A stretch of 64,000 bases of DNA, taken from Candidatus Iainarchaeum sp. (GTDB lineage: Archaea > Iainarchaeota > Iainarchaeia > Iainarchaeales > GCA-2688035). The stretch is from positions 71,481 to 135,480 of the forward strand of contig JAFCCL010000002.1 of NCBI GenBank assembly GCA_017610205.1, in the 5' to 3' direction. Position numbers and translations under genes: made by a program. Below the pieces are notes generated by a model. The model was given only the letters and a program-made list of their open reading frames with translations, had not been told where the DNA came from and did no database searches. This document shows, piece by piece, positions 1,640 through 64,000 of this stretch; the stretch's first letter is position 1, and every line of letters begins with the position of its first letter.

Positions 1640-2353
1640 TTAAAGCATTGAAATAATAGTTAAAACAAGAACACTTACAAGAACCCCAATAAGGAACAAA
1701 AGAGGTTTTCCCGACTGACCTCTTGGCAAAGTGTCCCTTACAGCAATATAAAGCATTGCACCCAAAACAAATGAAAAAAGAAGATGGTAAAGATAAGGTG
1801 TTAGGTTCAATGCATAAGCAGCCAACACGCCAAAAACCGGTGACATAGGAAGAAGAAAGCCTGCAAGAAGCTTTTTGTTAAATGTTTTATCAATGTCATT
1901 CAAAGAAAGACTGCTTGAAAAAGTGTGCAAAAGCAACGGAATAAAGATAAGGAACCCTGACAAAATCCCCTCAATGCTAAAAGCAAGAAAAAGAGTTATT
2001 CCAACAAGGAAATGGTTTACAAAAAAACCAAGTGCATGAATTGAAGCAAGGTCCTTCATTTGCTCTTTCTTGTTCACAATATGCTGGTAAACATACTTTT
2101 CGCCAAGATGCAGTGAAACAAAACCAGCAAGCATCAGCAAAAAAATGCTTTCTCCAACATGATACATTCCATTAAAAAATTCAGGAAGCAGGTAAAGAAA
2201 AATTAAACCAAGGAAAAGCCCAGCAGAAAAAGAAATTGTCTGCATATGAAACTTTTTAACATGCTCTGCATATTTTTCAGAAAAGAAATGAACAGATGCA
2301 AGAATCAAAGAAAGCAGGAAGGCCGAAATTACTGCATAAAAAGATGGAATCAT
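1640..2353 (-). CDS. Polytopic membrane protein, possibly a ZIP-like metal transporter
   Basis: 237 aa with about 8 hydrophobic helices. His-rich helices (HALGFFVNHF) weakly resemble ZIP permeases. Confidence 0.3.
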   Translation of the reverse strand: MIPSFYAVISAFLLSLILASVHFFSEKYAEHVKKFHMQTISFSAGLFLGLIFLYLLPEFFNGMYHVGESIFLLMLAGFVSLHLGEKYVYQHIVNKKEQMKDLASIHALGFFVNHFLVGITLFLAFSIEGILSGFLIFIPLLLHTFSSSLSLNDIDKTFNKKLLAGFLLPMSPVFGVLAAYALNLTPYLYHLLFSFVLGAMLYIAVRDTLPRGQSGKPLLFLIGVLVSVLVLTIISML

Positions 2354-2408
2354 AACTTGAAGAAAAAGGCTTTTTATATTTAAATAGTTTTCTGAAGTAA
2401 ACTATTTT

Positions 2409-3332
2409 ATGCCAGAACTTACAATTGACTTTCATACACACCTGCTTGAAAAAAGAATTAAGCCAGAAGACTATTGGAAAGCCGCAAAGGCAAAAAAGCT
2501 TGATGCAATAGCCATAACAGAGCATTCGTTTGAAAATCCGGCAAAAGCTTACGAAATGCTTTTGGAAAAAAAACCAAGAGGAATAACATTAATTCCAGGA
2601 ATTGAAATTTCAAGCGAAGCAGGACATTTACTTGTTCTTGGAAAAAACAAAGACATTTACAGCATTGAAAGCCTTTTCAGAAAAGGAATTTCAATAAAAG
2701 AAGCAATGGCAATAGCAAAAGTCAAAGGCCTGCTATTAATCATTGCCCACCCATGGGGATTTTCAAGCGACAGTGCAGCATATATTTTGGGAGAAAAAAA
2801 ACTCAAAGCACTTGTTGAAAAAGAAAAAATAGGAATAGAAGCATTCAACGGAATGTTTGGAAACGTAAGCTCGTTTTTTTATGCAACCAACTGGGTTAGA
2901 AAACCAATGAACTTTTTTGACTTTTTGGAAAAAAGCCGCATTGGGAAAAAAACAAGACTAAGCAAGCTTGGCAAAAAAGGCAGGGAAAAACTTGACAAAA
3001 AAGGAAAAGAAATTCTTGAAAGATGCACAAAACCATTTGAACTAAGTAAAAATGCAGCATTTGTTACAGCAGGAAGCGATGCCCACAACCCTAAAAGGAT
3101 TGGAACAGGAATTATAAAACTTACAACAAAAGGAAAAGATATAGAAAGCATTTTGAACGCAGTGCAAAACAAAAAGAATGTGAAATGGATTGGACCCTAT
3201 GTAAAAGAAACAAGCAAAGGATACACAATTGACAAAACATCCATGCAAAAAAAAGAAGTGCTAAGCGGATTAAAGTATGCAACAAAGAGCAAAATTGTTA
3301 AAAAAATAAAAAGGAAAAAATCTAATTCTTAA
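2409..3332 (+). CDS. PHP-domain phosphoesterase with Lys-rich C-terminal tail
   Basis: PHP motifs DFHTH, ITEH, GIEIS and GHLLVLG. C-terminus is KKIKRKKSNS. Confidence 0.7.
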   Translation: MPELTIDFHTHLLEKRIKPEDYWKAAKAKKLDAIAITEHSFENPAKAYEMLLEKKPRGITLIPGIEISSEAGHLLVLGKNKDIYSIESLFRKGISIKEAMAIAKVKGLLLIIAHPWGFSSDSAAYILGEKKLKALVEKEKIGIEAFNGMFGNVSSFFYATNWVRKPMNFFDFLEKSRIGKKTRLSKLGKKGREKLDKKGKEILERCTKPFELSKNAAFVTAGSDAHNPKRIGTGIIKLTTKGKDIESILNAVQNKKNVKWIGPYVKETSKGYTIDKTSMQKKEVLSGLKYATKSKIVKKIKRKKSNS

Positions 3333-3366
3333 AAGCATGAATTTAAATAATTCTTTGTCCTAAATT

Positions 3367-3783
3367 GTGTGCATGATTTTTTCTGTTTTAACCGGAATGC
3401 CATTAAAGGACATTCCAAAAGAAGCAACACAACTTCACTTTGTAAGACCAGTAAAAAAAGAACTGGTGGAAAAAATACTAAAAAAATGCAAAGGCTTAAG
3501 ACAGGCAACCATGAGCAAAAGTTGCCTTGCAAGAATGCCTAAAAAAAACATTGCCATGCTCAAAAAAAAAGGCGTAGTGGTAGAAATTGAAACAAGAGCA
3601 GGGCGTCCAATATCAGTTCCTTTGGAAAAAATGCAACAGGCTTTAGAAATGAGAAAAGATTACCAAAGCCTTAGAGAAGTTGAAAAAGTTACCGGAATTT
3701 CAAAAAGCACAGTCCATTATTTGGAAAAATACTCCCAAAGGGCAAAGATTAAAAATGGGAAAAGAGTAATTTATTTGAAGTGA
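3367..3783 (+). CDS. Small HTH protein (Hin/resolvase-type HTH, no catalytic domain)
   Basis: 138 aa. RAGRPISVPLEKMQQALEMRKDYQSLREVEKVTGISKSTVHYLEK resembles a GRP-HTH_7 DNA-binding domain. Confidence 0.4.
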   Translation: MCMIFSVLTGMPLKDIPKEATQLHFVRPVKKELVEKILKKCKGLRQATMSKSCLARMPKKNIAMLKKKGVVVEIETRAGRPISVPLEKMQQALEMRKDYQSLREVEKVTGISKSTVHYLEKYSQRAKIKNGKRVIYLK

Positions 3784-3838
3784 AGATTAAAAATATGAAA
3801 AGAACAATTTATTTGTAAAATTAAAACGGGGTGATTTT

Positions 3839-4165
3839 GTGGGAAACGAGTTTTTTGAACAGACTTTGATTAATCTTACAAGAAAGGGTGCAGAGGACAG
3901 AGTGCGGTTGCTTAAAAATTTGCACAAAAAAGTTATGCCAAGCCAGCTTGAAAGGATTCAAAAAAACGACAAAAGCGTCTTGCAGGAAATGTTTATGCCA
4001 AAATGGGTTTCATGGGAGCTTTTAAGGGCGTGGGCAGACAATTTCAAAAAACCAGGAAAAGGAAAGCAATGCATTTTGTGCGATGAAAAAAAAGAAAACG
4101 GCATTGACTTTAACGAAAGGTTTATCTGCGAAGGCTGTTTTGTCAGACTAAAGCAATTAGAGTGA
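3839..4165 (+). CDS. Zn-ribbon protein (CxxC...CxxC)
   Basis: 108 aa. C-terminal CILCDEKKENGIDFNERFICEGCF. Confidence 0.4.
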   Translation: MGNEFFEQTLINLTRKGAEDRVRLLKNLHKKVMPSQLERIQKNDKSVLQEMFMPKWVSWELLRAWADNFKKPGKGKQCILCDEKKENGIDFNERFICEGCFVRLKQLE

Positions 4166-4169
4166 AGGC

Positions 4170-4298
4170 CTAAGGTTTTGCAGGCTGTTGTATTCTGCAA
4201 TGGCAGGCAGGGCATTCCCATTCTGAAATTACTTTTTCTCCTTCAACATGCTCAATACCAACCCTCTGCATTTCAATTCCGCATTTTTGGCATTTCAT
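4170..4298 (-). CDS. 42-aa Zn-ribbon mini-protein (not in ORF track)
   Basis: Manual translation gives MKCQKCGIEMQRVGIEHVEGEKVISEWECPACHCRIQQPAKP with two CxxC pairs and a TAG stop. It converges on the upstream gene. Confidence 0.35.
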   Translation of the reverse strand: MKCQKCGIEMQRVGIEHVEGEKVISEWECPACHCRIQQPAKP

Positions 4299-17688: not shown

Positions 17689-17760
17689 TGAACCCTGCGG
17701 AAATTGAACCCGCGGTCTCCCAATTGCCAACCGAGCGTCATACCACTAGATTAAGAGCCC
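17689..17760 (-). tRNA. Degenerate tRNA-Ala(GGC)-like copy (probable tRNA pseudogene)
   Basis: 72 nt, about 85% identical to the tRNA-Ala at 18107-18178. It has 3 G.U pairs in the acceptor stem, a broken D-stem, and a weakened anticodon stem. Confidence 0.4.
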
Positions 17761-17917: not shown

Positions 17918-18107
17918 GGACCCTGCGGAAATTGAACAGCCTTTTAGAAAAAGGCTGGCTAAAATCACAACTACCACAAGGAACCCATTTCGCTTGGGCT
18001 CAATGGGTCAGTGGACCCTGCGGGAATTGAACAGCCTTTTAGAAAAAGGCTGGCTAAAATCACAACTACCACAAGGAACCCATTTCGCTTGGGCTCAATG
18101 GGTCAGT
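17918..18107. repeat. Two perfect-to-near-perfect 95-bp tandem units, each ending in the 3'-terminal 20-mer of tRNA-Ala
   Basis: Units start at 17918 and 18013; the third 20-mer starts at 18108 and begins the tRNA. Each unit contains an 8-bp hairpin (AGCCTTTTagaAAAAGGCT) and a 7-bp stem (ACCCATT...AATGGGT). Confidence 0.85.
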
Positions 18108-18178
18108 GGACCCTGCGGGAATTGAACCCGCGGTCTCCCGATTGCCAACCGAGCGTCATACCACTAGACTAAGGGCCC
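18107..18178 (-). tRNA. tRNA-Ala(GGC) with G3:U70 identity pair
   Basis: Reverse complement reads GGGCCCTTAGTCTAGTGGTATGACGCTCGGTTGGCAATCGGGAGACCGCGGGTTCAATTCCCGCAGGGTCCA. Anticodon loop is TTGGCAA. CCA is not encoded. Confidence 0.75.
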
Positions 18179-43799: not shown

Positions 43800-44120
43800 T
43801 TGATTCCAAAATTTGGATTATCGGAAATCCCTAATCCGACAAAGAGTTTTCTAAGACGTCTTGGGTTTAACCTTCAACAAGTTAGAGAGTTTGGCTTTGA
43901 AGAAATCAAAGAACAACTGCTTAAAATTTCTAATTCTGAGAAAACAGGGTTAAATAAAAGGGAAAAGCAAGTTGTAAAATTAAGGCTTGATGGAAAAGAC
44001 GGTTCTGAAATAGGAAAAGCTTTGAGTAGCAGTAGGCAGTGGGCTAGTAAGTTTCATACAAGTGCAATAAAAAAGATAAAAATACAGCTTGAAAAAAAGC
44101 GCCCTTCCTCTGGGACTTAA
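43800..44120 (+). CDS. Small sigma-70-region-4/LuxR-like HTH protein
   Basis: LNKREKQVVKLRLDGKDGSEIGKALSSSRQWASKFHTSAIKKIK. The stop overlaps the mcm stop convergently. Confidence 0.4.
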   Translation: MIPKFGLSEIPNPTKSFLRRLGFNLQQVREFGFEEIKEQLLKISNSEKTGLNKREKQVVKLRLDGKDGSEIGKALSSSRQWASKFHTSAIKKIKIQLEKKRPSSGT

Positions 44121-47100
44121 TCCTTCCTTGTTGGCTTTAAGAAATTGTGCCTTGGCCTGTATAATTCACCATTCTTTTCAAGCTTTTGAATCAGGTCTCT
44201 CGCCCTTTCCTTATCAATGCCTTCAGAAACAGCTTCGTTTAATACATCCTGCAATGGAACATTGTCCATTTCAGCTGCCTTTTCTCTCAAAATTGAAAGA
44301 ATCTTTCTCATATTTGTTATCTGAGTATGAGTTTGTCCGGTCATAATAATGTCATAATCTATTTTTCCTGTTTCAGGATCTGTTACAACATCGCTCAAAC
44401 TTGCCTTAACAAGCTTTATAGCTCTTTCAGCATCCTCTTTTTCAGCAGTGTCTGAAAGCCTTATTCTTGCACTTGCCTCTGCAAGCCTTACAAGCCCTTC
44501 AAGCTGCCTGTGAGTAGCAGCATAGCTTCCCTCTTTTCTGCCAATATCCCTTAAACCAATATAAAAATCCCCAATTGCCTGAATTGCTTCCTTGCTCATC
44601 ACAGGAAAAATATTTTGCCTTGTAAAAGAAATGTACTTTCCCAAAAGCTCTGGGTCAACAGGCGGGGTTGAAATTAATTCAATGTCTTCCTGGTCTTCCT
44701 TTTTGAGAGCATTTCCTTTTTTCTTGTACTGTGAAATTAATTCACCGCTTTTGTGAGTTTTCAAAATGTGTGCTGTTATGGCTTCGTCCTTTGTCCTGTC
44801 CAACACATCCTTTATCATAAAGAAAAGGTCAAATCGTGAAATAAGCGATGCAGGCAAATTAATTTGTTCAATGAAAGGAGTATATTGTTCAAACCTTGAC
44901 ATTTTGGGGTTTGCAGCAGCAAGAATGCTTGTGTCAGATTTAAACCTTGTTACAATTCCGGCTTTTGCAACCGAAATCATTCCCTGCTCCATTGCCTCGT
45001 GCATTGCACTTCTGTCCTCTGCATCCATTTTGTCCAATTCATCAACCATGCAGATTCCGCCACTGCTTAAAACAAGAGCTCCTGCTTTTAGAGTCCAGCC
45101 TCCTTCACCAAAATCATCCTTAACAGCCGAGGCAGTGTTATGGACAAAAATTCCATTTGCAATAAAATTATGATCTTTTTTAACAGAAAAATCGTAAACA
45201 AATTCATAGCATGGCTTGAAGCATTCTTTTTCTGACACCTCTTCCCATAGGATATCAGATTTTGCAAGCTGTTTAAGCAATAAATTATTAAAAGATTTTT
45301 TTCTAACAAACTTTTGAAGTTTTTTTCTTGAAATGTTTAACCTTCCACTGCTGTAAATCCATTCTGCGTTTTGGTTTTTTAGCAATTGATGTATACTTGG
45401 AATTATATCAATGTTTGTATTTTCCTCAGGTGCTTTTGAAATAAGTTCTCTTAACTTTTTCTTTTTTTCTACAAGATTGAATCCTATTTGCTTTTCAAAT
45501 GTTTCAATGTTTTTTTTGCCTCTTATTTCAGTATAATACTGGTCATGGCTGCTTGTTACAGAAATTTTTTTTTCTACGGCAATTTTTTCGGCCTTTTTCC
45601 TTTTTCTCAGCTTGCTCTGGATTCCAAATTTAAGCAATGCCAAATGAAGACTTTTTGCAAGCCCTTTGCTTATTGTAGTAATTCCAACACTTGAAGAATA
45701 GTTTTTCCCAATGACAACCCAGCCATCAGTATCAAAAAGACCTTGTAACAACTTTGCCAAAATATTATTTGGCATTTCTGTTGCAAGATGCGAGATTCTT
45801 ATCCTGGTTTTGTCACGATTAAGCCCAAATGCCTTCAATAGCTCACATACAACCCTATAGCTGATTCTTCTCGCAGGCACTCTAAAACCGTCGTTAATTT
45901 TTTCAGGAAGCAAACCAAACAGTTCCAAAGATATGGCATCAATTTCTTGTAGCAGTTGTTCAGTAGCACTGAATATTCTTATTGTTGAGGTGCCGTTGCC
46001 TTTTTCCCAAAGGCTTCCGTCTCCAAGCGCAAGACCTGCAAGATATGCAAGTTTTTCATTATCAAGGTATATTGGAATTTTCATTGGCTTTCCATGGTTT
46101 ACAAAAACCTCAGAAATCTGTTTTGATATGTCCTCCAAAGAAAACCCAGCTTCTTGACTCAATTCAATTAAATTTTTAAGAGAAATTGCATGATAGTGTC
46201 GTTTGTTTCTTATAGCATAGATGGTATCCCTGCTTTTGCCAATTTTTTTTGCTATTTTCTGCAAAGACCCGTAATCTTTAACAAGAATGTCTGTTATTTC
46301 TTTCAGTAATTCAGCAACATTATCTTTCACCAGAATGTTTTTGTCATTGGCAAGCAAGCTTATTGAAGGAATGTTTTTTTTGTTTCCTTCAGGCAATTTT
46401 CTTGGACACGCAACAAAATCCCCTTTTCCAAGGTCTTCTGATTTAACCCATTCAATTTTGTTGTCTTTTAATCTAACAAGCGAAGTGTTTGGAGTGAGCT
46501 CTATTTCTTTCCCAAGCCTTGTTTTAATTCTAATCATTTCTTCAGGTGCCTTTATTTTCCAAATTTTGTAAATATCTTCCTTTTCAAGCTTCAACTTTGA
46601 ACCCAAACAATGGCTTTTTCCGCTAAAATTATTTGCCCAAGCATTTGGAATTTCTTCAACCGAATTTTCTTCACAAAAATTTTCTTCAACAAAATCCTTA
46701 ATTGGCTTGAAACCGTTGTCATTAAGAATTAAGGAATCCGGAGCTACACACAAACCCACACCAGAAGTTGTCTTTCCAGCAGTGTAAATGCTTCTTGGAG
46801 CAATATTGTGAGAAGACTGAAGGATTTGACTCTTTCCTGTTCCAGGATCTCCAACCAGCAAAACATGAACATTGCCCCTGATGGTTTGGTTTCCCGGCAA
46901 ATGCTTTTTGACTCCTCCAAAAAGCTGCAGTATAATTGATTCCTTTACAGTTTCGTGCCCATAAATTGCAGGCGCAATGCTTTTTGTAAGCTTTTCATAA
47001 ATTTCAGGATTTTCTGCCAAAGCCCTTATTTCGTTCTCCTCCTCAGGCGTTACCTCAACAGATTCAAATTCCCGCTGGGTTTCCTCCAAATGCAATGCCT

Positions 47101-47833
47101 CCAAATACCTTCCATAAATTGTTTTCTTTTTGTCAGGCAAAGCAAGCCTTAAAATTCCAACAAACCTTGTTTTGTCACCTGCACTAATTCTGTTAACCAA
47201 ATCGTCTGCAATATAAATATTAAGAGTTGAAGCCTGTTCATTTCCCTTAAGCTTTTCCAAAGGCTCCTGAATTTCAATTCTTTGACTGTCAATAAATTCT
47301 GATTGCTCTGGCACAAGCTCAAAGTCTCTGTGCCTGCACTCGCAAAAAGAAGGCATTTGAAGCTGCTGGTTATCCTGCTTTTTCTTATAAGTGTTGCCAC
47401 AGTGCTTGCATTTCCACACTGCAAGCTGTAATTTTGGCATAACTGTTGTAATTTGCCTTACAATACCTTCAACAGCAATAAGCTTTCCCAACTGCTTTGC
47501 ACTAATGTCTCTGACAAGGGGCTCGTGTTCTTTTGGCAAATTAAAAAAACGAACGTGTGGTGAAAATTTTTCAATTTCAAGAGCAGGAACCTCTATTTGT
47601 TCAACTGCATCCTTTGCAGCCTCCAAAAGAAGTTCAGGGCGGTCAAGAACTGCATCAGCAAGCTCTATGTCAAACCTCTCCAAAAGAGTAAAGTCAATAT
47701 CAAGGCTTCTTTTGTCAGGATAGTTTTCAACAAGCCTTTCAAGCTCTCTTTTGTAATTTGCTTCAAAAAATTCCAAGAATTTGGAAACGTAAGGGCTTTC
47801 ACTGTCCTCCCTGATTTTTTCCTCCAAAGACAT
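44117..47833 (-). CDS. mcm: MCM replicative helicase containing a 538-aa LAGLIDADG intein
   Basis: 1238 aa. Zn finger CKHCG...CEC, Walker A GDPGTGKSQ, arginine finger SRFDL. The intein lies between ...TSGVGL and TASAVKDD.... Confidence 0.9.
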   Translation of the reverse strand: MSLEEKIREDSESPYVSKFLEFFEANYKRELERLVENYPDKRSLDIDFTLLERFDIELADAVLDRPELLLEAAKDAVEQIEVPALEIEKFSPHVRFFNLPKEHEPLVRDISAKQLGKLIAVEGIVRQITTVMPKLQLAVWKCKHCGNTYKKKQDNQQLQMPSFCECRHRDFELVPEQSEFIDSQRIEIQEPLEKLKGNEQASTLNIYIADDLVNRISAGDKTRFVGILRLALPDKKKTIYGRYLEALHLEETQREFESVEVTPEEENEIRALAENPEIYEKLTKSIAPAIYGHETVKESIILQLFGGVKKHLPGNQTIRGNVHVLLVGDPGTGKSQILQSSHNIAPRSIYTAGKTTSGVGLCVAPDSLILNDNGFKPIKDFVEENFCEENSVEEIPNAWANNFSGKSHCLGSKLKLEKEDIYKIWKIKAPEEMIRIKTRLGKEIELTPNTSLVRLKDNKIEWVKSEDLGKGDFVACPRKLPEGNKKNIPSISLLANDKNILVKDNVAELLKEITDILVKDYGSLQKIAKKIGKSRDTIYAIRNKRHYHAISLKNLIELSQEAGFSLEDISKQISEVFVNHGKPMKIPIYLDNEKLAYLAGLALGDGSLWEKGNGTSTIRIFSATEQLLQEIDAISLELFGLLPEKINDGFRVPARRISYRVVCELLKAFGLNRDKTRIRISHLATEMPNNILAKLLQGLFDTDGWVVIGKNYSSSVGITTISKGLAKSLHLALLKFGIQSKLRKRKKAEKIAVEKKISVTSSHDQYYTEIRGKKNIETFEKQIGFNLVEKKKKLRELISKAPEENTNIDIIPSIHQLLKNQNAEWIYSSGRLNISRKKLQKFVRKKSFNNLLLKQLAKSDILWEEVSEKECFKPCYEFVYDFSVKKDHNFIANGIFVHNTASAVKDDFGEGGWTLKAGALVLSSGGICMVDELDKMDAEDRSAMHEAMEQGMISVAKAGIVTRFKSDTSILAAANPKMSRFEQYTPFIEQINLPASLISRFDLFFMIKDVLDRTKDEAITAHILKTHKSGELISQYKKKGNALKKEDQEDIELISTPPVDPELLGKYISFTRQNIFPVMSKEAIQAIGDFYIGLRDIGRKEGSYAATHRQLEGLVRLAEASARIRLSDTAEKEDAERAIKLVKASLSDVVTDPETGKIDYDIIMTGQTHTQITNMRKILSILREKAAEMDNVPLQDVLNEAVSEGIDKERARDLIQKLEKNGELYRPRHNFLKPTRKD
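45137..46750 (-). mobile_element. MCM intein with LAGLIDADG homing-endonuclease domain
   Basis: Begins CVAPDSLIL (Cys1) and ends FVHN, with Thr at +1. Internal YLAGLALGDGSL and LLQGLFDTDGWV motifs. Confidence 0.8.
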
Positions 47834-48280: not shown

Positions 48281-48330
48281 GTTTTCCCCTCATCATCTCC
48301 AATTCCGAGTTTTTTCTTAGGACTCTGCTT
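48281..48330. repeat. Copy A of a conserved ~50-nt non-coding motif (copy B at 60693-60742, ~88% identical)
   Basis: gttttcccctcatcatctccaattccgagttttttcttaggactctg versus gtttctcctcatcacctccaattccgaattttttcataggactctg. Confidence 0.7.
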
Positions 48331-58681: not shown

Positions 58682-60655
58682 CTACTTCCCCCTATACCCA
58701 ACCAGCTTTTTGAGGTAGGGAACGATTTCAGGGTTTTGAAGAGTACTTGCGTCTCCGAGTTTTTCGTTTACAAGGATGCTTCTAAGAAAGCGCCTCATTA
58801 TTTTTCCGCTTCTGGTTTTTGGCAAACCCTTTACAAAAAAGATTTGATGTGGCTTGGCAGTTGGGCCAATTTCCTTTTTCACCTGCTTTACTATACTGGC
58901 TTCAACCTCTGGAGAAGGTTTTACTTCAGGTCTTAAAACAATAAATGCAACAGGAACCTGCCCCCTGATTTCATCAGGCTTTGGAACAACAGCAGAAACA
59001 ATAACCTCTGGATGTGAAGTAATTGCATCCTCCACCTCTGCACTGGACAAGCGATGGCCTGCAACCTTCATAACGTCGTCAACCCTGCCAGTAACCCTGA
59101 TATTGTGCTTGTCATACCATTTTGCTCCGTCACTTGTATAGTAAACCTTGGGACCGTACTCTGACCAGTAAGTGTCTCTGTACTTCTTTGGGTTTTTCCA
59201 AACTCCGCGAAGAAGCCCTGGGGGAAAAGGAGGCCTAAACACAAGGTAACCAGTTTCACCCTTCTTAACTGGCTTGCCTTTGTCATCCAAAATGTCTGCC
59301 ACTGTACCAGGGAAAGGTCTTCCGGCAACAGTTGGAATAAATGGACCAACTCCTGGAAGAGCATTTACTAAAGTTCCGCCTGTTTCAGTCTGCCACCAAG
59401 TGTCAATTACCGGACAGCAATTGTTGCAAATGTGTTTGAAATACCAATGCCATGTTTCCATATCAATTGGTTCTCCAACAGTTCCAAGAATTCTCAAAGT
59501 GGAAAGGTCGTAGTGCGCTGGCCACTTTACACCCATTTTCTTGAACATCCTGATTGCGGTTGGTGCAGTGTAGAATACACTTACATCAAATTTGTCAGCA
59601 ATTTTCCAAAGCCTTCCCCAATCAGGCATATCAGGGCTTCCCTCATAAATAACCATTGTAGCACCAACAGAAAGGGGACCGTAACAATTGTATGTGTGGC
59701 CGGTAATCCATCCAATGTCTGCAGTGCACCAGAAGACATCGTCTTCGTGAATGTCAAAGTTAAACAAAGTAGTCCAATAAGCTTGGGTTAAGTAACCGGC
59801 AGTGTCGTGGATTACTCCCTTTGGCTTTCCGGTTGTTCCAGAAGTGTAAAGAAGGAATAAGGGTGTGTTTGATTCCACTGGAACAGCTTTGGAATCCTCG
59901 CTTGCCTTTGCCATTAGGTTGTGGTACCACAAATCACGACCTTTCTTCATTGCAATTTTTACTTTTGTCTTGTTATCAAACCTTTTGACAACAACAACCT
60001 TCTTAACCGACTTGGCAGAGGCTGCAACATCAGCCTGATTTTTCAAAACAATTGGCTTTCCTCTCCTGTAATAGCCATCACAGGTAATCAAAACCTTGGC
60101 TTCACAGTCTTCCACCCTTTTCTTGAAGTTTGAGCCTGAAAACGCTGAGAATACAACACTGTGAATTGCTCCAATTCTCGCACAGGAAAGCATTGCAACC
60201 ATTACCTCAGGAATCATTGGCAGGTAGATTCCAACCCTGTCTCCTTTTTTCACTCCGAGCTTGCGTAGCACATTGGAGAACTTGCAAACTTCTCTGTACA
60301 ATCCACGGTAAGTAATCTTTCTCTCCCTCTCAAACTCCGGTTCCGCCTCCCAGATTATTGCAACCTTGTTTCCCCTTGTTTCCAAGTGCCTGTCAAGGCA
60401 ATTATAGCTTGCATTTAACTGCCCTCCAAGAAACCATTTGAAGTAAGGCGGCTTTCCCTCATAAACCTTTTTCCAAGGCTTGGACCAGGTTAATCCATCT
60501 CTTGCAAGATTTGCCCAAAAGTCCTTTGGGCTCTTAGCTGCATCCTTGTAAATTCGGTCAGTACCAACCCAGGCTCGCTCCCTCATTTCGTCAGACGGCC
60601 AGAAAACGTTTTTCTTATTTTTATCTTTTACAACAAGCTTTGGACCAGGAGACAT
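58682..60655 (-). CDS. acs: Acetyl-CoA synthetase (AMP-forming)
   Basis: 657 aa. YTSGTTGKPKG AMP-binding motif and C-terminal SGKIMRR. Confidence 0.9.
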   Translation of the reverse strand: MSPGPKLVVKDKNKKNVFWPSDEMRERAWVGTDRIYKDAAKSPKDFWANLARDGLTWSKPWKKVYEGKPPYFKWFLGGQLNASYNCLDRHLETRGNKVAIIWEAEPEFERERKITYRGLYREVCKFSNVLRKLGVKKGDRVGIYLPMIPEVMVAMLSCARIGAIHSVVFSAFSGSNFKKRVEDCEAKVLITCDGYYRRGKPIVLKNQADVAASAKSVKKVVVVKRFDNKTKVKIAMKKGRDLWYHNLMAKASEDSKAVPVESNTPLFLLYTSGTTGKPKGVIHDTAGYLTQAYWTTLFNFDIHEDDVFWCTADIGWITGHTYNCYGPLSVGATMVIYEGSPDMPDWGRLWKIADKFDVSVFYTAPTAIRMFKKMGVKWPAHYDLSTLRILGTVGEPIDMETWHWYFKHICNNCCPVIDTWWQTETGGTLVNALPGVGPFIPTVAGRPFPGTVADILDDKGKPVKKGETGYLVFRPPFPPGLLRGVWKNPKKYRDTYWSEYGPKVYYTSDGAKWYDKHNIRVTGRVDDVMKVAGHRLSSAEVEDAITSHPEVIVSAVVPKPDEIRGQVPVAFIVLRPEVKPSPEVEASIVKQVKKEIGPTAKPHQIFFVKGLPKTRSGKIMRRFLRSILVNEKLGDASTLQNPEIVPYLKKLVGYRGK

Positions 60656-60746
60656 AGTAATCGAAAATAATAGGGGGTTTTAGAATAAAAATGTTTCTCC
60701 TCATCACCTCCAATTCCGAATTTTTTCATAGGACTCTGTTTTTCTC

Positions 60747-60800
60747 GGATTAAACATTTCCCTGCCTTTGGCAGGTCGGCTGCACCTAAATGTTTAATCC
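60747..60800. promoter_or_regulatory. Perfect 13-bp inverted repeat (GGATTAAACATTT ... AAATGTTTAATCC) with an internal CCTGCC/GGCAGG hairpin
   Basis: Seen directly in the sequence. It lies in the divergent region between acs and the small-ORF operon, directly after motif copy B. Confidence 0.55.
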
Positions 60801-60857
60801 CTCCAAAAACAGCAGGGACGTCCATGAAAAAAATTCATTCTAAATTGGAGGTGATAG

Positions 60858-60992
60858 ATGATGAGTTTTTCTCAAAAACTTTCAGAAACAAAAGATAATC
60901 CAGTTGGTTATGGAAGGTCTTTTGTTGAAATCTCTGAAGCCATAAAAAGGAATGAGACAGCCAGAGAAGCATGGAAGAGGCGACTGTTATGA
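60858..60992 (+). CDS. 44-aa small protein, first gene of a translationally coupled operon
   Basis: Strong SD GGAGGTGA lies 7 nt upstream. MMSFSQKLSETKDNPVGYGRSFVEISEAIKRNETAREAWKRRLL. The stop overlaps the next ATG (ATGA). Confidence 0.35.
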   Translation: MMSFSQKLSETKDNPVGYGRSFVEISEAIKRNETAREAWKRRLL

Positions 60993-61138
60993 ACATAGTA
61001 GTTTCCACAATCTTCTTGTTCATAATGTCAGTGGTGTTCTTGCAGATTGTAGAACTTAACTTGGAAGACACAGAAATCCTAACCTATGCTGTTGGGTTCT
61101 GTATTGGTATAACAAGTGAGTGGTGGTTTCCAATATGA
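60989..61138 (+). CDS. 49-aa single-TM small protein
   Basis: MNIVVSTIFLFIMSVVFLQIVELNLEDTEILTYAVGFCIGITSEWWFPI. ATGA overlaps at both ends. Confidence 0.35.
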   Translation: MNIVVSTIFLFIMSVVFLQIVELNLEDTEILTYAVGFCIGITSEWWFPI

Positions 61139-62412
61139 AATCACCGGAAACCCACTCTCCAAAGCGCCTTAAAAGGCAAGCGGGAAAATCTATGAGAGTA
61201 AGGAAAATGAACAAGGAAGATTTGACTAAAGAGTTGCTTGAGGAACTTTACAACAAGAAAGGTTTCTCTCTCGACCGAATTGTCAAAGAAGTTGGTTGTG
61301 AAAGAACAATAGTCTACAATCGTTTGAAACAATTTGAGATAAAAATGAGGCCTCCTTATAGAAAAGATCTCAAAATAGAAAAAGAAGTTTTGGAAAAGCT
61401 TTACTGGAAACAAGGATTTTCTTTTGAAGAAACAGGAAAAAAGCTTGGTTGTTGTGGGGCAAATGTTTCTTATTGGATGAAAAAGCATGGAATAGAAACA
61501 AGGCCAATTGGATACAATGAAATTGTAATTCCAAAAGAAACTCTTCAAGAGCTTTATTGGGATAAAAAATTGACAGCACAGCAAATTGGAGAAAAATTTG
61601 GGACTAATCACAGAAGAATTTTAAAAAAGATGAAAAAGGCAGGAATTGCAAGCAGAACATTGTCAGAAGCAGGAACAAAAAAATTCAAAGCGCCATTCAC
61701 AGGCGGCTTAGACGAAAAAGCATTCCTGTTAGGACTTAGAACAGGAGACTTCTACGCAAAACAGCAGCACATATCTGTGAGAATGCAAACTACATCCACA
61801 CATCCAGCACAAGTCGAACTACTAAGAAAGTCACTTGAAAAATATGGCGAAACAAAAACGTACTATAACACAAACAAAGCAAGAGAAGATGAATGGTTTA
61901 TTTATGCTGACCTTGATAAGTCTTTTGAATTTCTTTTAAAGAAACCAAATGAAATCCCTCAATGGATTCTAGAAAATAAGAACTGCTTTTACAGTTTTTT
62001 GTGTGCATATTCAGACTGTGAAGGAAGCTTTAGTATTATCAAAAGCTATGAAAATAGTACGAGGTTTATATTCAGAATAACAGCAGGCGACAAGAAGGTT
62101 CTTGAACAGATAAAAAGCACATTAGAATCTTATGGATACAACCCAAGACTCTACTTTAAGTCAAAGAAGGGCTTACAAGGAACTTTTGGTACATTTAACT
62201 TGGATATGTACAACTTTATAATGTACAAAAAAGAAGAAACACTTAGCTTGATAAAAAATTTATTTCCACACAGCAAACACAAGGAGAAAATTGACAAGAT
62301 GAAATACATTCAAGAAAACAAAGACAAGAACTGGGCTGAAATAATTGGAGGATGGAACAAAATTAGAGAGGGGATAAAAGCAGGGTTGTTAAAAAACAAT
62401 TTACAAGAATAG
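61135..62412 (+). CDS. Free-standing LAGLIDADG-type homing-endonuclease-like protein with three N-terminal NUMOD1/sigma-r4-like HTH repeats
   Basis: Three repeats of the form (L/V)LExLYxxKGFSxxxIxKExG...V..RLKxxGI. The C-terminal domain has LLGLRTGDF and FLCAYSDCEGSF motifs. The ATG at 61135 is coupled to the upstream stop. Confidence 0.6.
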   Translation: MKSPETHSPKRLKRQAGKSMRVRKMNKEDLTKELLEELYNKKGFSLDRIVKEVGCERTIVYNRLKQFEIKMRPPYRKDLKIEKEVLEKLYWKQGFSFEETGKKLGCCGANVSYWMKKHGIETRPIGYNEIVIPKETLQELYWDKKLTAQQIGEKFGTNHRRILKKMKKAGIASRTLSEAGTKKFKAPFTGGLDEKAFLLGLRTGDFYAKQQHISVRMQTTSTHPAQVELLRKSLEKYGETKTYYNTNKAREDEWFIYADLDKSFEFLLKKPNEIPQWILENKNCFYSFLCAYSDCEGSFSIIKSYENSTRFIFRITAGDKKVLEQIKSTLESYGYNPRLYFKSKKGLQGTFGTFNLDMYNFIMYKKEETLSLIKNLFPHSKHKEKIDKMKYIQENKDKNWAEIIGGWNKIREGIKAGLLKNNLQE

Positions 62413-64000
62413 CGGCACCGCAATCAAGGCAACTATTGTCATTAGTTTAAGAATAATATTAATTCCAACTCCGCTGCAATCTTTAAATCCGTCTCCTACC
62501 GTGTCTCCAACCACTGCAGCTTTGTGAGCTGTAGAACCTTTTCCACCAAATTGTCCAGCTTCAATGTATTTCTTTGCGTTATCCCAACTGGCACCAGCAG
62601 TTGTCTGAAAGACAGCCATAAGGAAACCTGTCGCAATTGCACCTGCGAGGAAACCTCCAAGAGCAGCCACACCTAAAACCGAGCCAACCGCTATTGGGGC
62701 AAGCATGGCAATCAGACTTGGCACAATCATCTCCCTTAAAGCAGCCTGTGTACTAATTGAAATACATTTATCATAATCCGGTTTTGCCTTACCCTGCATC
62801 AGACCTTTAATTTCTCTAAACTGCCTTCTAACCTCTTCAACCATTTTTATTGCAGCATTACCTACAGCACTCAACATAAAAGCACTAAACACAAACGGTA
62901 TCAACGCCCCAAGAAACAGCCCGACAATTACAACCGGCTGAGCAATATCAATGGAACTAAGATTCGCAACAACAATATAAGAGGCAAACAATGCAAGAGC
63001 AGTTAAGGCCGCAGAACTTATTGCAAAACCTTTTCCAATTGCAGCAGTGCTGTTTCCAACTGCGTCAAGCAACTCAGTCCTTTCCCTGACTTTTTTGCCC
63101 AAGCCAGCCATTTCAGCAATTCCTGCAGCATTGTCTGCAACACTTCCATAAGTGTCAGCTGCAAGAGTAATGCCCAAAGTGCCAAGCAGTCCAACAGCGG
63201 AAATCGCAACACCCATTACTCCTGCAAAATAATAGCTTACAAGAATTACTGCACCAACAGTAATAACAGGAATTGCTGTTGAAAACATTCCTGTACTAAG
63301 ACCTGCAATGACATTTGTTCCTGCACCGGATTTTGCCGCTTCAGCAATCTTTTGTGTTGGACTGTGAAAAGGGCTTGTTACAAATTCTGTTGCATAGCCA
63401 ATTATTAAAGCCCCAACAAGTCCTGCGACAATTGCAAAGAAAAAGCCAAGGGTTCCAAGGAAAAAGACAAGGAAAAAGTATGAAATTATTGCCATAAAAA
63501 GTGCTGCTGCAAAAATGCCTTTGTCAATTGCTCCAAAAATGTTTTTCTTTTTGGCTTTTACAAAAAGTGTTGAAATAATTGAGGCGACAATTCCAATTGC
63601 TGCAAGGGCTAATGGAATCAAAATGCCGTTTGTTCCCATAAAAGCAGCTCCTAAAACCATTGCTGCAATTATTGCGTCAACATAGCTTTCAAACAAGTCT
63701 GCACCCATTCCTGCAACGTCACCAACATTGTCTCCAACATTGTCAGCTATTACTGCAGGATTTCTTGGGTCATCCTCAGGAATGTTTTTTTCTATTTTAC
63801 CAACAAGGTCTGCTCCAACGTCAGCTGCCTTTGTGTAAATTCCTCCTCCAACTCTTGCAAACAAGGCAATGCTACTTGCACCAAAGCCAAATCCGAAAAG
63901 AATGTTTGGATCCTGAAAAATAAGATATGACAAGGTAACTCCAAGCAAGCCAAGGCCTACTACTGCAAAACTCATTACTGAACCTGAAGCAAAGGCAACT
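62401..64000 (-). CDS. hppA: H+-translocating pyrophosphatase (C-terminal ~530 aa; N-terminus lies beyond the window end)
   Basis: GGGIYTKAADVGADLVGK, DNVGDNVGD, and C-terminal DNAKKYIE...GDTVGDGFKD motifs. The reading frame is open to position 64000. Confidence 0.9.
   Translation of the reverse strand, partial: VAFASGSVMSFAVVGLGLLGVTLSYLIFQDPNILFGFGFGASSIALFARVGGGIYTKAADVGADLVGKIEKNIPEDDPRNPAVIADNVGDNVGDVAGMGADLFESYVDAIIAAMVLGAAFMGTNGILIPLALAAIGIVASIISTLFVKAKKKNIFGAIDKGIFAAALFMAIISYFFLVFFLGTLGFFFAIVAGLVGALIIGYATEFVTSPFHSPTQKIAEAAKSGAGTNVIAGLSTGMFSTAIPVITVGAVILVSYYFAGVMGVAISAVGLLGTLGITLAADTYGSVADNAAGIAEMAGLGKKVRERTELLDAVGNSTAAIGKGFAISSAALTALALFASYIVVANLSSIDIAQPVVIVGLFLGALIPFVFSAFMLSAVGNAAIKMVEEVRRQFREIKGLMQGKAKPDYDKCISISTQAALREMIVPSLIAMLAPIAVGSVLGVAALGGFLAGAIATGFLMAVFQTTAGASWDNAKKYIEAGQFGGKGSTAHKAAVVGDTVGDGFKDCSGVGINIILKLMTIVALIAVPLFL

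Follow-up and report, generated by a model that had tools for sequence, protein, structure and literature searches.

A free-standing LAGLIDADG endonuclease gene at a fixed site beside the membrane pyrophosphatase gene of DPANN archaea: a candidate for intronless homing

The homing endonuclease (HE) genes of phage T4 have hairpins that sequester their ribosome-binding sites, and intronless homing has been described for them (PMC2988022). Two described LAGLIDADG proteins are related in other ways: WhiA, a bacterial regulator derived from a LAGLIDADG endonuclease, contains a single C-terminal helix-turn-helix (HTH) domain, has lost its catalytic acids and is universal in Gram-positive bacteria, and in yeast HO (F-SceII) a free-standing LAGLIDADG enzyme is joined to an additional DNA-binding domain (PMC3384342). 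In our study, a stretch of 64,000 nucleotides (nt) from Candidatus Iainarchaeum sp. (assembly GCA_017610205.1, contig JAFCCL010000002.1, positions 71,481 to 135,480 of the forward strand), which is called the window here, was found to contain an inserted cassette of 1.7 kb (60697–62400, + strand). The cassette is composed of a palindrome, two small open reading frames (sORF1 and sORF2) and a free-standing LAGLIDADG endonuclease gene of 425 amino acids (aa) at 61135–62412 (+). It was placed between the stop codon of the host gene, encoding a K+-stimulated membrane pyrophosphatase (H+-PPase, hereafter PPase; 3' part at 62401–63975, − strand), and the core promoter of the acetyl-CoA synthetase gene acs (58682–60655, −), and the PPase gene shares its last 12 nt with the end of the convergent 425-aa open reading frame (ORF). 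The link of the cassette with the PPase gene is the real finding; the first-pass annotation of the window had missed it, as well as the insertion polymorphism. We hold with moderate confidence that the block 60697–62400 is a selfish insertion with the free-standing HE as its cargo; that grade applies jointly to the whole of the explanation developed below.

The cassette was found to be present, decayed or absent at one fixed spot after the PPase stop codon in close DPANN relatives. Relatives were collected in part by a genome scan with a 22-sequence endonuclease alignment, and the loci carry labels of the form L001 to L132. In all 33 distinct loci with at least 43% identity and available neighbouring sequence, the endonuclease gene adjoined the PPase gene at its 3' end. 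It was mostly convergent with the PPase gene, abutting or overlapping it, and was on the same strand, 100–190 nt downstream, in L012, L015, L025, and L028. The neighbour on the other side differed among these loci (acs, Rpb7, and others). The informative empty sites came from PPase protein look-ups. Seven HE-less relatives (L123, L125, L126, L127, L128, L130, and L131) contained a PPase 71–88% identical to that of the window in the same synteny, with the shared gene order Metallophos - PPase - acs - CutA/Topo VI. The empty PPase-acs spacer measured 27–95 nt in L125, L126, L128, L130, and L131, and unrelated ORFs followed the PPase gene in place of the endonuclease in L123 and L127. Decayed copies contained a stop codon at the invariant Trp of DEWFIY in L008, a frameshift and stops in L028, a stop in L019, and stops in L132. 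In L129 only the last 57 codons were left, and this remnant still overlapped the PPase end. In total, the fixed site was empty in seven relatives, held a disrupted copy in four and a 57-codon remnant in one. When metagenomes were scanned with the PPase C-terminus, 80 loci at 50–64% identity were recovered, none with the endonuclease; these were mostly non-DPANN and are a weak control. An apparent PPase 3' fragment beside the endonuclease gene of L010 was discarded as an artefact of a masked N run.

Relatives of the endonuclease at 30–40% identity were found beside other genes, namely between pheS and pheT (L035, L036, L039, and L040), after a methylpurine DNA glycosylase gene (L041 and L042), and beside radical-SAM genes (L037 and L038). 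The acs side of the insertion was delimited by the acs core promoter block AAACATTTTTATTCT (60682–60696, −), which is common to the window and the HE-less L126. Neither the palindrome nor the 46-nt motif of its left arm was found in any empty site of the HE-less relatives; therefore the insertion was taken to extend from 60697 to 62400. The closest PPase matches in a homologue search were named Diapherotrites, which, with the named sources of the endonuclease homologues, assigns the window to a DPANN archaeon. The PPase-acs spacer is also a hot spot for other small insertions, including a 105-aa winged-helix-like ORF in L123 (4591–4908), a 231-aa ORF in L127 (3753–4448), and three extra ORFs in L001 (4062–5583).

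The 425-aa protein was read by the first-pass annotation as three tandem HTH repeats followed by two LAGLIDADG-like motifs, and both features were borne out. In the AlphaFold model (predicted local distance difference test score, pLDDT, 88), each repeat of about 51 aa forms a three-helix bundle. The three modules (61213–61638, +; about aa 27–66, 83–117, and 134–168) contain helices at 32–41/46–53/57–66, 83–92/97–104/108–117, and 134–143/148–155/159–168, respectively; relatives have three, two or one module. The first LAGLIDADG helix, KAFLLGLRTGD (61708–61749, +), is modelled as a helix at 192–203 followed by a strand, and the second, FYSFLCAYSDCE (61978–62022, +), as a helix at 282–296 followed by a strand. 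The model and fold comparison gave a two-lobed LAGLIDADG nuclease fold in a single chain. An acidic residue ends each helix, D205 (codon 61747–61749) and E296 (codon 62020–62022), and these are both metal-binding catalytic acids. In an alignment of 35 homologues (26–77% identity), G200, G204, D205, D294, and E296 were invariant. The basic residues R216, K303, and R310 were invariant or nearly so, and are candidates for the conserved basic residues that flank the active site (K42 and K120 in I-DmoI). The Pfam family LAGLIDADG_3 (PF14528) matched aa 287–347 with 23.8 bits against a cut-off of 22.5, which is a narrow margin, and the same family is precomputed for many of the homologues.

The likeness to NUMOD1 and to sigma-70 region 4 that had been suggested for the HTH repeats was not upheld, as Pfam gave no NUMOD1 match in the 425-aa protein and several HTH families, Sigma70_r4 and HTH_50 among them, scored just under the Pfam cut-offs. 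Instead, the HTH array matched PHROG families annotated as HNH endonuclease, phrog_7545 (E = 3.8e-26, three stretches) and phrog_8446 (E = 5.4e-23). These matches were limited to the DNA-binding part, with no HNH domain covered; the same DNA-binding module is used by phage HEs of another catalytic class. The gene is free-standing, as annotated: it is a separate ORF in which Pfam found no intein splicing domain and Rfam no intron. A sequence search of the PDB with the protein returned nothing, so that the fold comparison alone was informative there, and PADLOC gave nothing meaningful. The database search found 92 homologues, with named sources in Woesearchaeota, Nanoarchaeota, and Aenigmarchaeota; searched alone, the nuclease core recovered representatives of 615 clusters (50% identity; E ≤ 1e-3), in which N-terminal extensions range from 0 to about 280 aa. 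In the literature searched, no account of the endonuclease family was found. By its sequence, fold and active site the 425-aa protein belongs to the LAGLIDADG family, and it does not match the WhiA or NUMOD1 families.

The endonuclease protein was found to be under strong purifying selection, with both catalytic acids kept; its ratio of nonsynonymous to synonymous substitution rates (dN/dS) was 0.06–0.14 among intact close copies, the same as that of PPase. Such constraint would also be expected of a domesticated, WhiA-like LAGLIDADG/HTH protein that no longer cuts and serves as a regulator or terminator factor for the PPase/acs neighbourhood. A long-lived tie to one host gene, seen in the correlation of endonuclease and PPase distances (r = 0.47), and the upstream palindrome, which could be an operator, are also on the side of a regulator. 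However, WhiA lost both catalytic acids (PMC3384342), whereas D205 and E296 are invariant here, and close relatives in which PPase is intact and conserved and the synteny unchanged lack the gene, while in others it is decaying. Its orientation to PPase is not fixed, its sister subfamilies occur at unrelated genes, and no WhiA family was present among the Pfam matches at E ≤ 1. We therefore regard a regulator as distinctly unlikely. The first-pass annotation had left the choice between a domesticated regulator and an active free-standing endonuclease; the endonuclease, active or recently active, fits far better.

The endonuclease phylogeny was found to be partly incongruent with that of PPase. 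The endonuclease cores of L012 and L028 were 93% identical and their PPases 69%, and a nucleotide island of 80–90% identity between the two loci covered the endonuclease ORF only, with flanks of 55–75%. The endonucleases of L027 and L032 grouped with the clade of L012, L025, and L026, whereas their PPases were placed in a distant clade. In a tree that included 80 HE-less PPases, the HE-linked PPases fell into several separate groups.

A candidate target was found within the PPase gene itself. As a first comparison, an alignment was made of PPase 3' ends from eight close relatives, four with and four without the HE, and the codons for the otherwise near-invariant motif GDPFKDT(S/A)GPSxNILIK, 42–93 nt before the PPase stop, differed between the two groups. 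The close HE-less alleles were canonical, with GDP(F/C)KDTAGP(S/G)LNILIK, and the close HE-bearing alleles contained GDGFKDCSGVGINIILK (window; 62446–62496, −), GDPCKDSVSVGLNIIIK, GDPHKDTSSVSLNIILK, and GDPFKDTCAPSAGNILIK. Canonical HE-less 3' ends, for example those of L126 (6300–6460) or L130, contain GGAGACCCCTGTAAAGACACTGCCGGGCCAAGTCTGAATATTTTGATAAAACTGATGAC. All 30 HE-linked PPases deviated from the motif, at a mean of 2.6 of 17 positions, whereas 76 of 84 HE-less PPases were fully canonical and 8 of 84 were deviant, with a mean of 0.095 deviations. The per-site deviation of the HE-linked alleles was 0.155 in the motif and about 0.03 in three neighbouring conserved blocks, a roughly five-fold difference. 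The GD..KD residues were kept in every HE-linked allele except that of L024 (ADAGKD). When HE status was predicted from the motif in five further PPases, four of the five predictions were correct: the canonical L130 and L131 were empty, the deviant L129 and L132 carried a decayed HE, and the deviant L128 was empty. In the close clade of 13 loci, which includes this five-locus prediction set, six loci had an HE or remnant with a deviant motif, none had an HE with a canonical motif, one had no HE and a deviant motif, and six had no HE and a canonical motif (hand-computed Fisher p ~0.004).

The explanation that we favour is homing without an intron. The enzyme would cut HE-less PPase alleles within the DNA for GDPFKDT(S/A)GPSxNILIK, and repair from an HE-bearing copy would carry the gene into the intergenic site, as in 'intronless homing'. 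Host alleles that carry the HE would escape self-cleavage through substitutions at non-catalytic positions of the motif. A deviant motif in the carriers and a conserved neighbouring gene are what intronless homing predicts (PMC2988022).

Upstream of the endonuclease gene, the first-pass annotation had listed three ORFs with a strong Shine-Dalgarno (SD) site and two ATGA overlaps, and these were found as described. The SD site GGAGGTGAT (60847–60855, +) lies 2 nt before the first ATG of sORF1 (44 aa; 60858–60992, +), which is followed by the hydrophobic sORF2 (49 aa; 60989–61138, +) and the endonuclease gene; both junctions, sORF1/sORF2 and sORF2/425-aa ORF, are ATGA stop/start overlaps. The endonuclease gene has no SD site of its own. 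The SD site belongs to a long imperfect palindrome of about 160 nt (60696–60862, +), whose left arm contains the anti-SD sequence ATCACCTCC (60703–60711) and whose right arm contains the SD site, so that the two pair in the predicted hairpin. Folded as RNA, the palindrome gave −62.8 kcal/mol (z = −6.8), and none of 200 shuffles folded as well. The 13-bp inverted repeat of the annotation, GGATTAAACATTT / AAATGTTTAATCC (60747–60759 and 60788–60800, +), is indeed perfect, though it is only the tip of this long hairpin; the 28-nt loop between its arms contains a small inner stem. The palindrome was kept in L001, L003, and L008, where 8 of 50 predicted pairs still pair after changes on both sides. 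In L001 the motif was found far from acs and the palindrome is not adjacent to that gene, so that the palindrome travels with the cassette.

The small ORFs were kept in position rather than in peptide sequence. The window, L001, L008, and L003 all contain the SD site followed by a leader ORF whose stop codon overlaps the start of the next ORF as ATGA. No tblastn match to sORF1 was found in any locus; its counterparts by position are 25 aa (L001), 38 aa (L008), and 46 aa (L003) long, with 26–50% identity over short alignments. The sORF2 peptide was 60% identical in L001 only (dN 0.29 and dS 0.85, dN/dS ~0.34), was truncated in L008 and was absent in L003, in which sORF1 is ATGA-coupled directly to an N-extended endonuclease ORF. 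Neither small ORF was found in relatives of 55% identity or less, in which an AT-rich stretch immediately precedes the endonuclease start, and the peptides had no family match in Pfam, NCBIfam, PHROGs or PADLOC. A functional three-gene module, in which the mini-proteins would serve the endonuclease as accessory, immunity or toxin partners, would accord with the two real ATGA overlaps, with the recurrence of the coupled leader-ORF chain in L001, L008, and L003, and with the dN/dS of sORF2 against L001; in view of the unconserved sORF1 peptide, the loss of sORF2 within the close clade, the absence of both from more distant relatives and the lack of any family match, such a module is very improbable. 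Judged from these comparisons, the three ORFs are not a conserved three-gene system. The first-pass annotation, which had proposed small accessory or immunity proteins in a trio, had itself named as refuting either small ORFs that are not conserved or the lack of a LAGLIDADG profile match; the former was found for the trio, and the LAGLIDADG assignment is untouched.

With less confidence than for the homing itself, we suggest that the upstream region limits expression of the endonuclease. The only good SD site precedes sORF1, and the hairpin of about 160 nt would base-pair with and sequester that site, so that ribosomes would reach the endonuclease at a low rate, by termination and reinitiation along the chain of ATGA-coupled leader ORFs. 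The small-ORF peptides would then not be functional partners. Translational throttling by the hairpin and the leader ORFs seems the most economical reading of this region.

The left arm of the palindrome contains the 46-nt motif CAGAGTCCTATGAAAAAATTCGGAATTGGAGGTGATGAGGAGAAAC (60693–60738, −), and the right arm, which includes the SD site, consists of a partial copy of it in inverted orientation. A solitary third copy was found at 48282–48327 (−), about 450 nt upstream of the MCM gene. The two full copies are identical at 41 of 46 positions, and no shuffle gave any match; the duplication noted in the first-pass annotation as 50 nt is therefore real, with an extent of 46 nt. The third copy lies 130 nt after a 170-aa ORF without a family match, and it has neither a partner arm nor an ORF behind its SD-like GGAGATGAT. 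No Rfam match was found for the palindrome or for the region of the motif at 48 kb. Several other roles were considered for these sequences. A C/D-box sRNA, suggested by RTGATGA in the motif, was dropped, as no D box follows. Coding on the minus strand (MKKFGIGGDEE...) was rejected; the copies differ mostly non-synonymously and one has no start codon. A role as part of the acs promoter was rejected as well, since HE-less relatives keep the acs core promoter without the motif and the L001 motif lies far from acs. Mimicry of the homing site by the palindrome, in the style of the I-TevI operator, was also rejected: a likeness to the PPase target was seen with L126 only (20/26) and was at chance level with five other alleles.

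Several points weigh against intronless homing at this site. The target rests on a correlation, from which we infer cleavage, and lineage effects could inflate the motif contrast, as most HE-less comparators are non-DPANN and the close-clade control comprises 13 loci. Locus L128 contains a deviant motif without an endonuclease gene. Much of the inheritance of the endonuclease appears to be vertical, as its distances still correlate with those of PPase. The island shared by L012 and L028 ends at the endonuclease ORF and does not reach the PPase 3' end; therefore the proposed target was not co-converted in that transfer. In the loop between β1 and β2 of the first lobe, most relatives have a Lys and the clade of the window has an Ile, so that the copy in the window may be a weakened one. 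For the palindrome, a role on DNA as a divergent promoter or operator, and not as an RNA hairpin, is also conceivable; the compensatory changes fit both. Homing would moreover require the DNA of different DPANN cells to meet.

Some of these points would equally suit an inactive relic, that is, a once-mobile cassette that is now a passenger in a variable intergenic hot spot, with the PPase motif differences being unrelated lineage drift. The spacer does hold other unrelated insertions (in L123, L127, and L001), several copies of the endonuclease are disrupted, and the empty L128 and the replaced loop lysine point the same way. However, the ORF in the window is intact, and its dN/dS is about 0.1 when compared with relatives whose synonymous sites are saturated; therefore constraint must have persisted. 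The deviations are also concentrated in 17 residues and not spread along the PPase C-terminus, and all 30 HE-linked alleles are deviant. We consider a relic unlikely, and retain intronless homing by an active or recently active endonuclease as the best explanation of the locus.

A few further observations were made at the loci of relatives. Locus L003 (7207–8376) is a population variant that shares its endonuclease protein with L002 but whose PPase gene lacks about codons 234–408, either through a deletion beside the endonuclease gene or through misassembly. In L035, an ORF for a reverse transcriptase (RVT_1; 3129–4196) immediately precedes pheS - endonuclease - pheT, and in L132, a locus with a decayed endonuclease, the PPase start is overlapped by an IS66-family transposase gene (1975–3210). 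The titles of the metagenome-assembled genomes (MAGs) of L008, L017–L019, L021, L022, L026, and L027 name Chloroflexi, Saccharibacteria, Patescibacteria or Methanosarcinales. Probably these contigs were assigned to the wrong bins, because L008 shows DPANN-type synteny and a PPase 90% identical to that of the window, and because the other PPases of this set that could be placed in the tree group with DPANN-labelled contigs.

Elsewhere in the window, the MCM helicase gene (44117–47833, −) carries an intein (Intein_splicing 83.9 bits) that itself includes a LAGLIDADG_3 domain (70.1 bits at aa 692–784); therefore the window holds a classical intein endonuclease and a free-standing one. Two tRNA-Ala(GGC) genes (17689–17760 and 18106–18178, −) were found 350 nt apart with the same anticodon, and their Rfam scores were 43 and 65 bits, respectively.

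Should the homing explanation be true, the cassette would be a marker for DNA exchange between DPANN cells, and the full life cycle of an HE (intact, nonsense, frameshift, remnant, empty, and resistant-empty) would be laid out at one locus in uncultured DPANN archaea. Intronless homing, to our knowledge so far a phage and organelle phenomenon, would extend to LAGLIDADG enzymes in archaeal chromosomes. Beyond this locus, we can raise only tentatively that free-standing LAGLIDADG endonucleases with variable HTH arrays make up a large class, so far undescribed, in chromosomes, in which each subfamily would be tied to its own housekeeping gene and would home actively from cell to cell in DPANN and other archaea. 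Such homing would imply frequent exchange of chromosomal DNA among these episymbionts, and the host would be pushed to diversify an otherwise invariant region beside the PPase catalytic residues. As meganuclease scaffolds, members of the family are compact and single-chain and come with modular HTH 'address' domains and a concrete predicted target, and proteins now labelled 'hypothetical' or 'transposase-like' could be given new names.

Among the described systems, tandem small HTH modules are also present in Cbp1, the CRISPR repeat-binding protein of Sulfolobales, which gave a weak NCBIfam match of 22 bits; this score is far under the 140-bit cut-off, and Cbp1 has no nuclease domain. The archaeal intron and intein LAGLIDADG enzymes I-DmoI, I-Tsp061I, and PI-PfuI share with the 425-aa protein two LAGLIDADG helices that each end in an acidic residue, whereas the gene described here is in no intron or intein, its product has three extra N-terminal HTH modules, and the identity is 13–17%. 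WhiA (DUF199) is likewise a LAGLIDADG and HTH fusion; in our protein, however, repeated HTH modules precede the nuclease domain and both acids are invariant, and its gene is patchily distributed and decaying. Like HO, the protein is free-standing with an added DNA-binding part. HO derives from an intein, has zinc fingers and has been domesticated for mating-type switching, whereas no intein remnant and no sign of a host function were seen here. The T-even phage free-standing HE genes (segA-G, GIY-YIG; mobA-E, HNH) resemble the cassette in being intergenic beside a conserved gene, in a cut placed by inference inside the neighbouring gene and not at the insertion point, in protection of the host allele by sequence differences, and in presence or absence among relatives. 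A hairpin over the ribosome-binding site is a further likeness (PMC2988022), as is the match of the HTH array to phage HNH families. The cassette differs from them in its LAGLIDADG catalytic class instead of GIY-YIG or HNH, in its location in a cellular archaeal chromosome and not a phage, and in its variable HTH array; in addition, the proposed target, at which cleavage is predicted, lies 42–93 nt from the insertion, whereas hundreds of bases are typical for seg genes.

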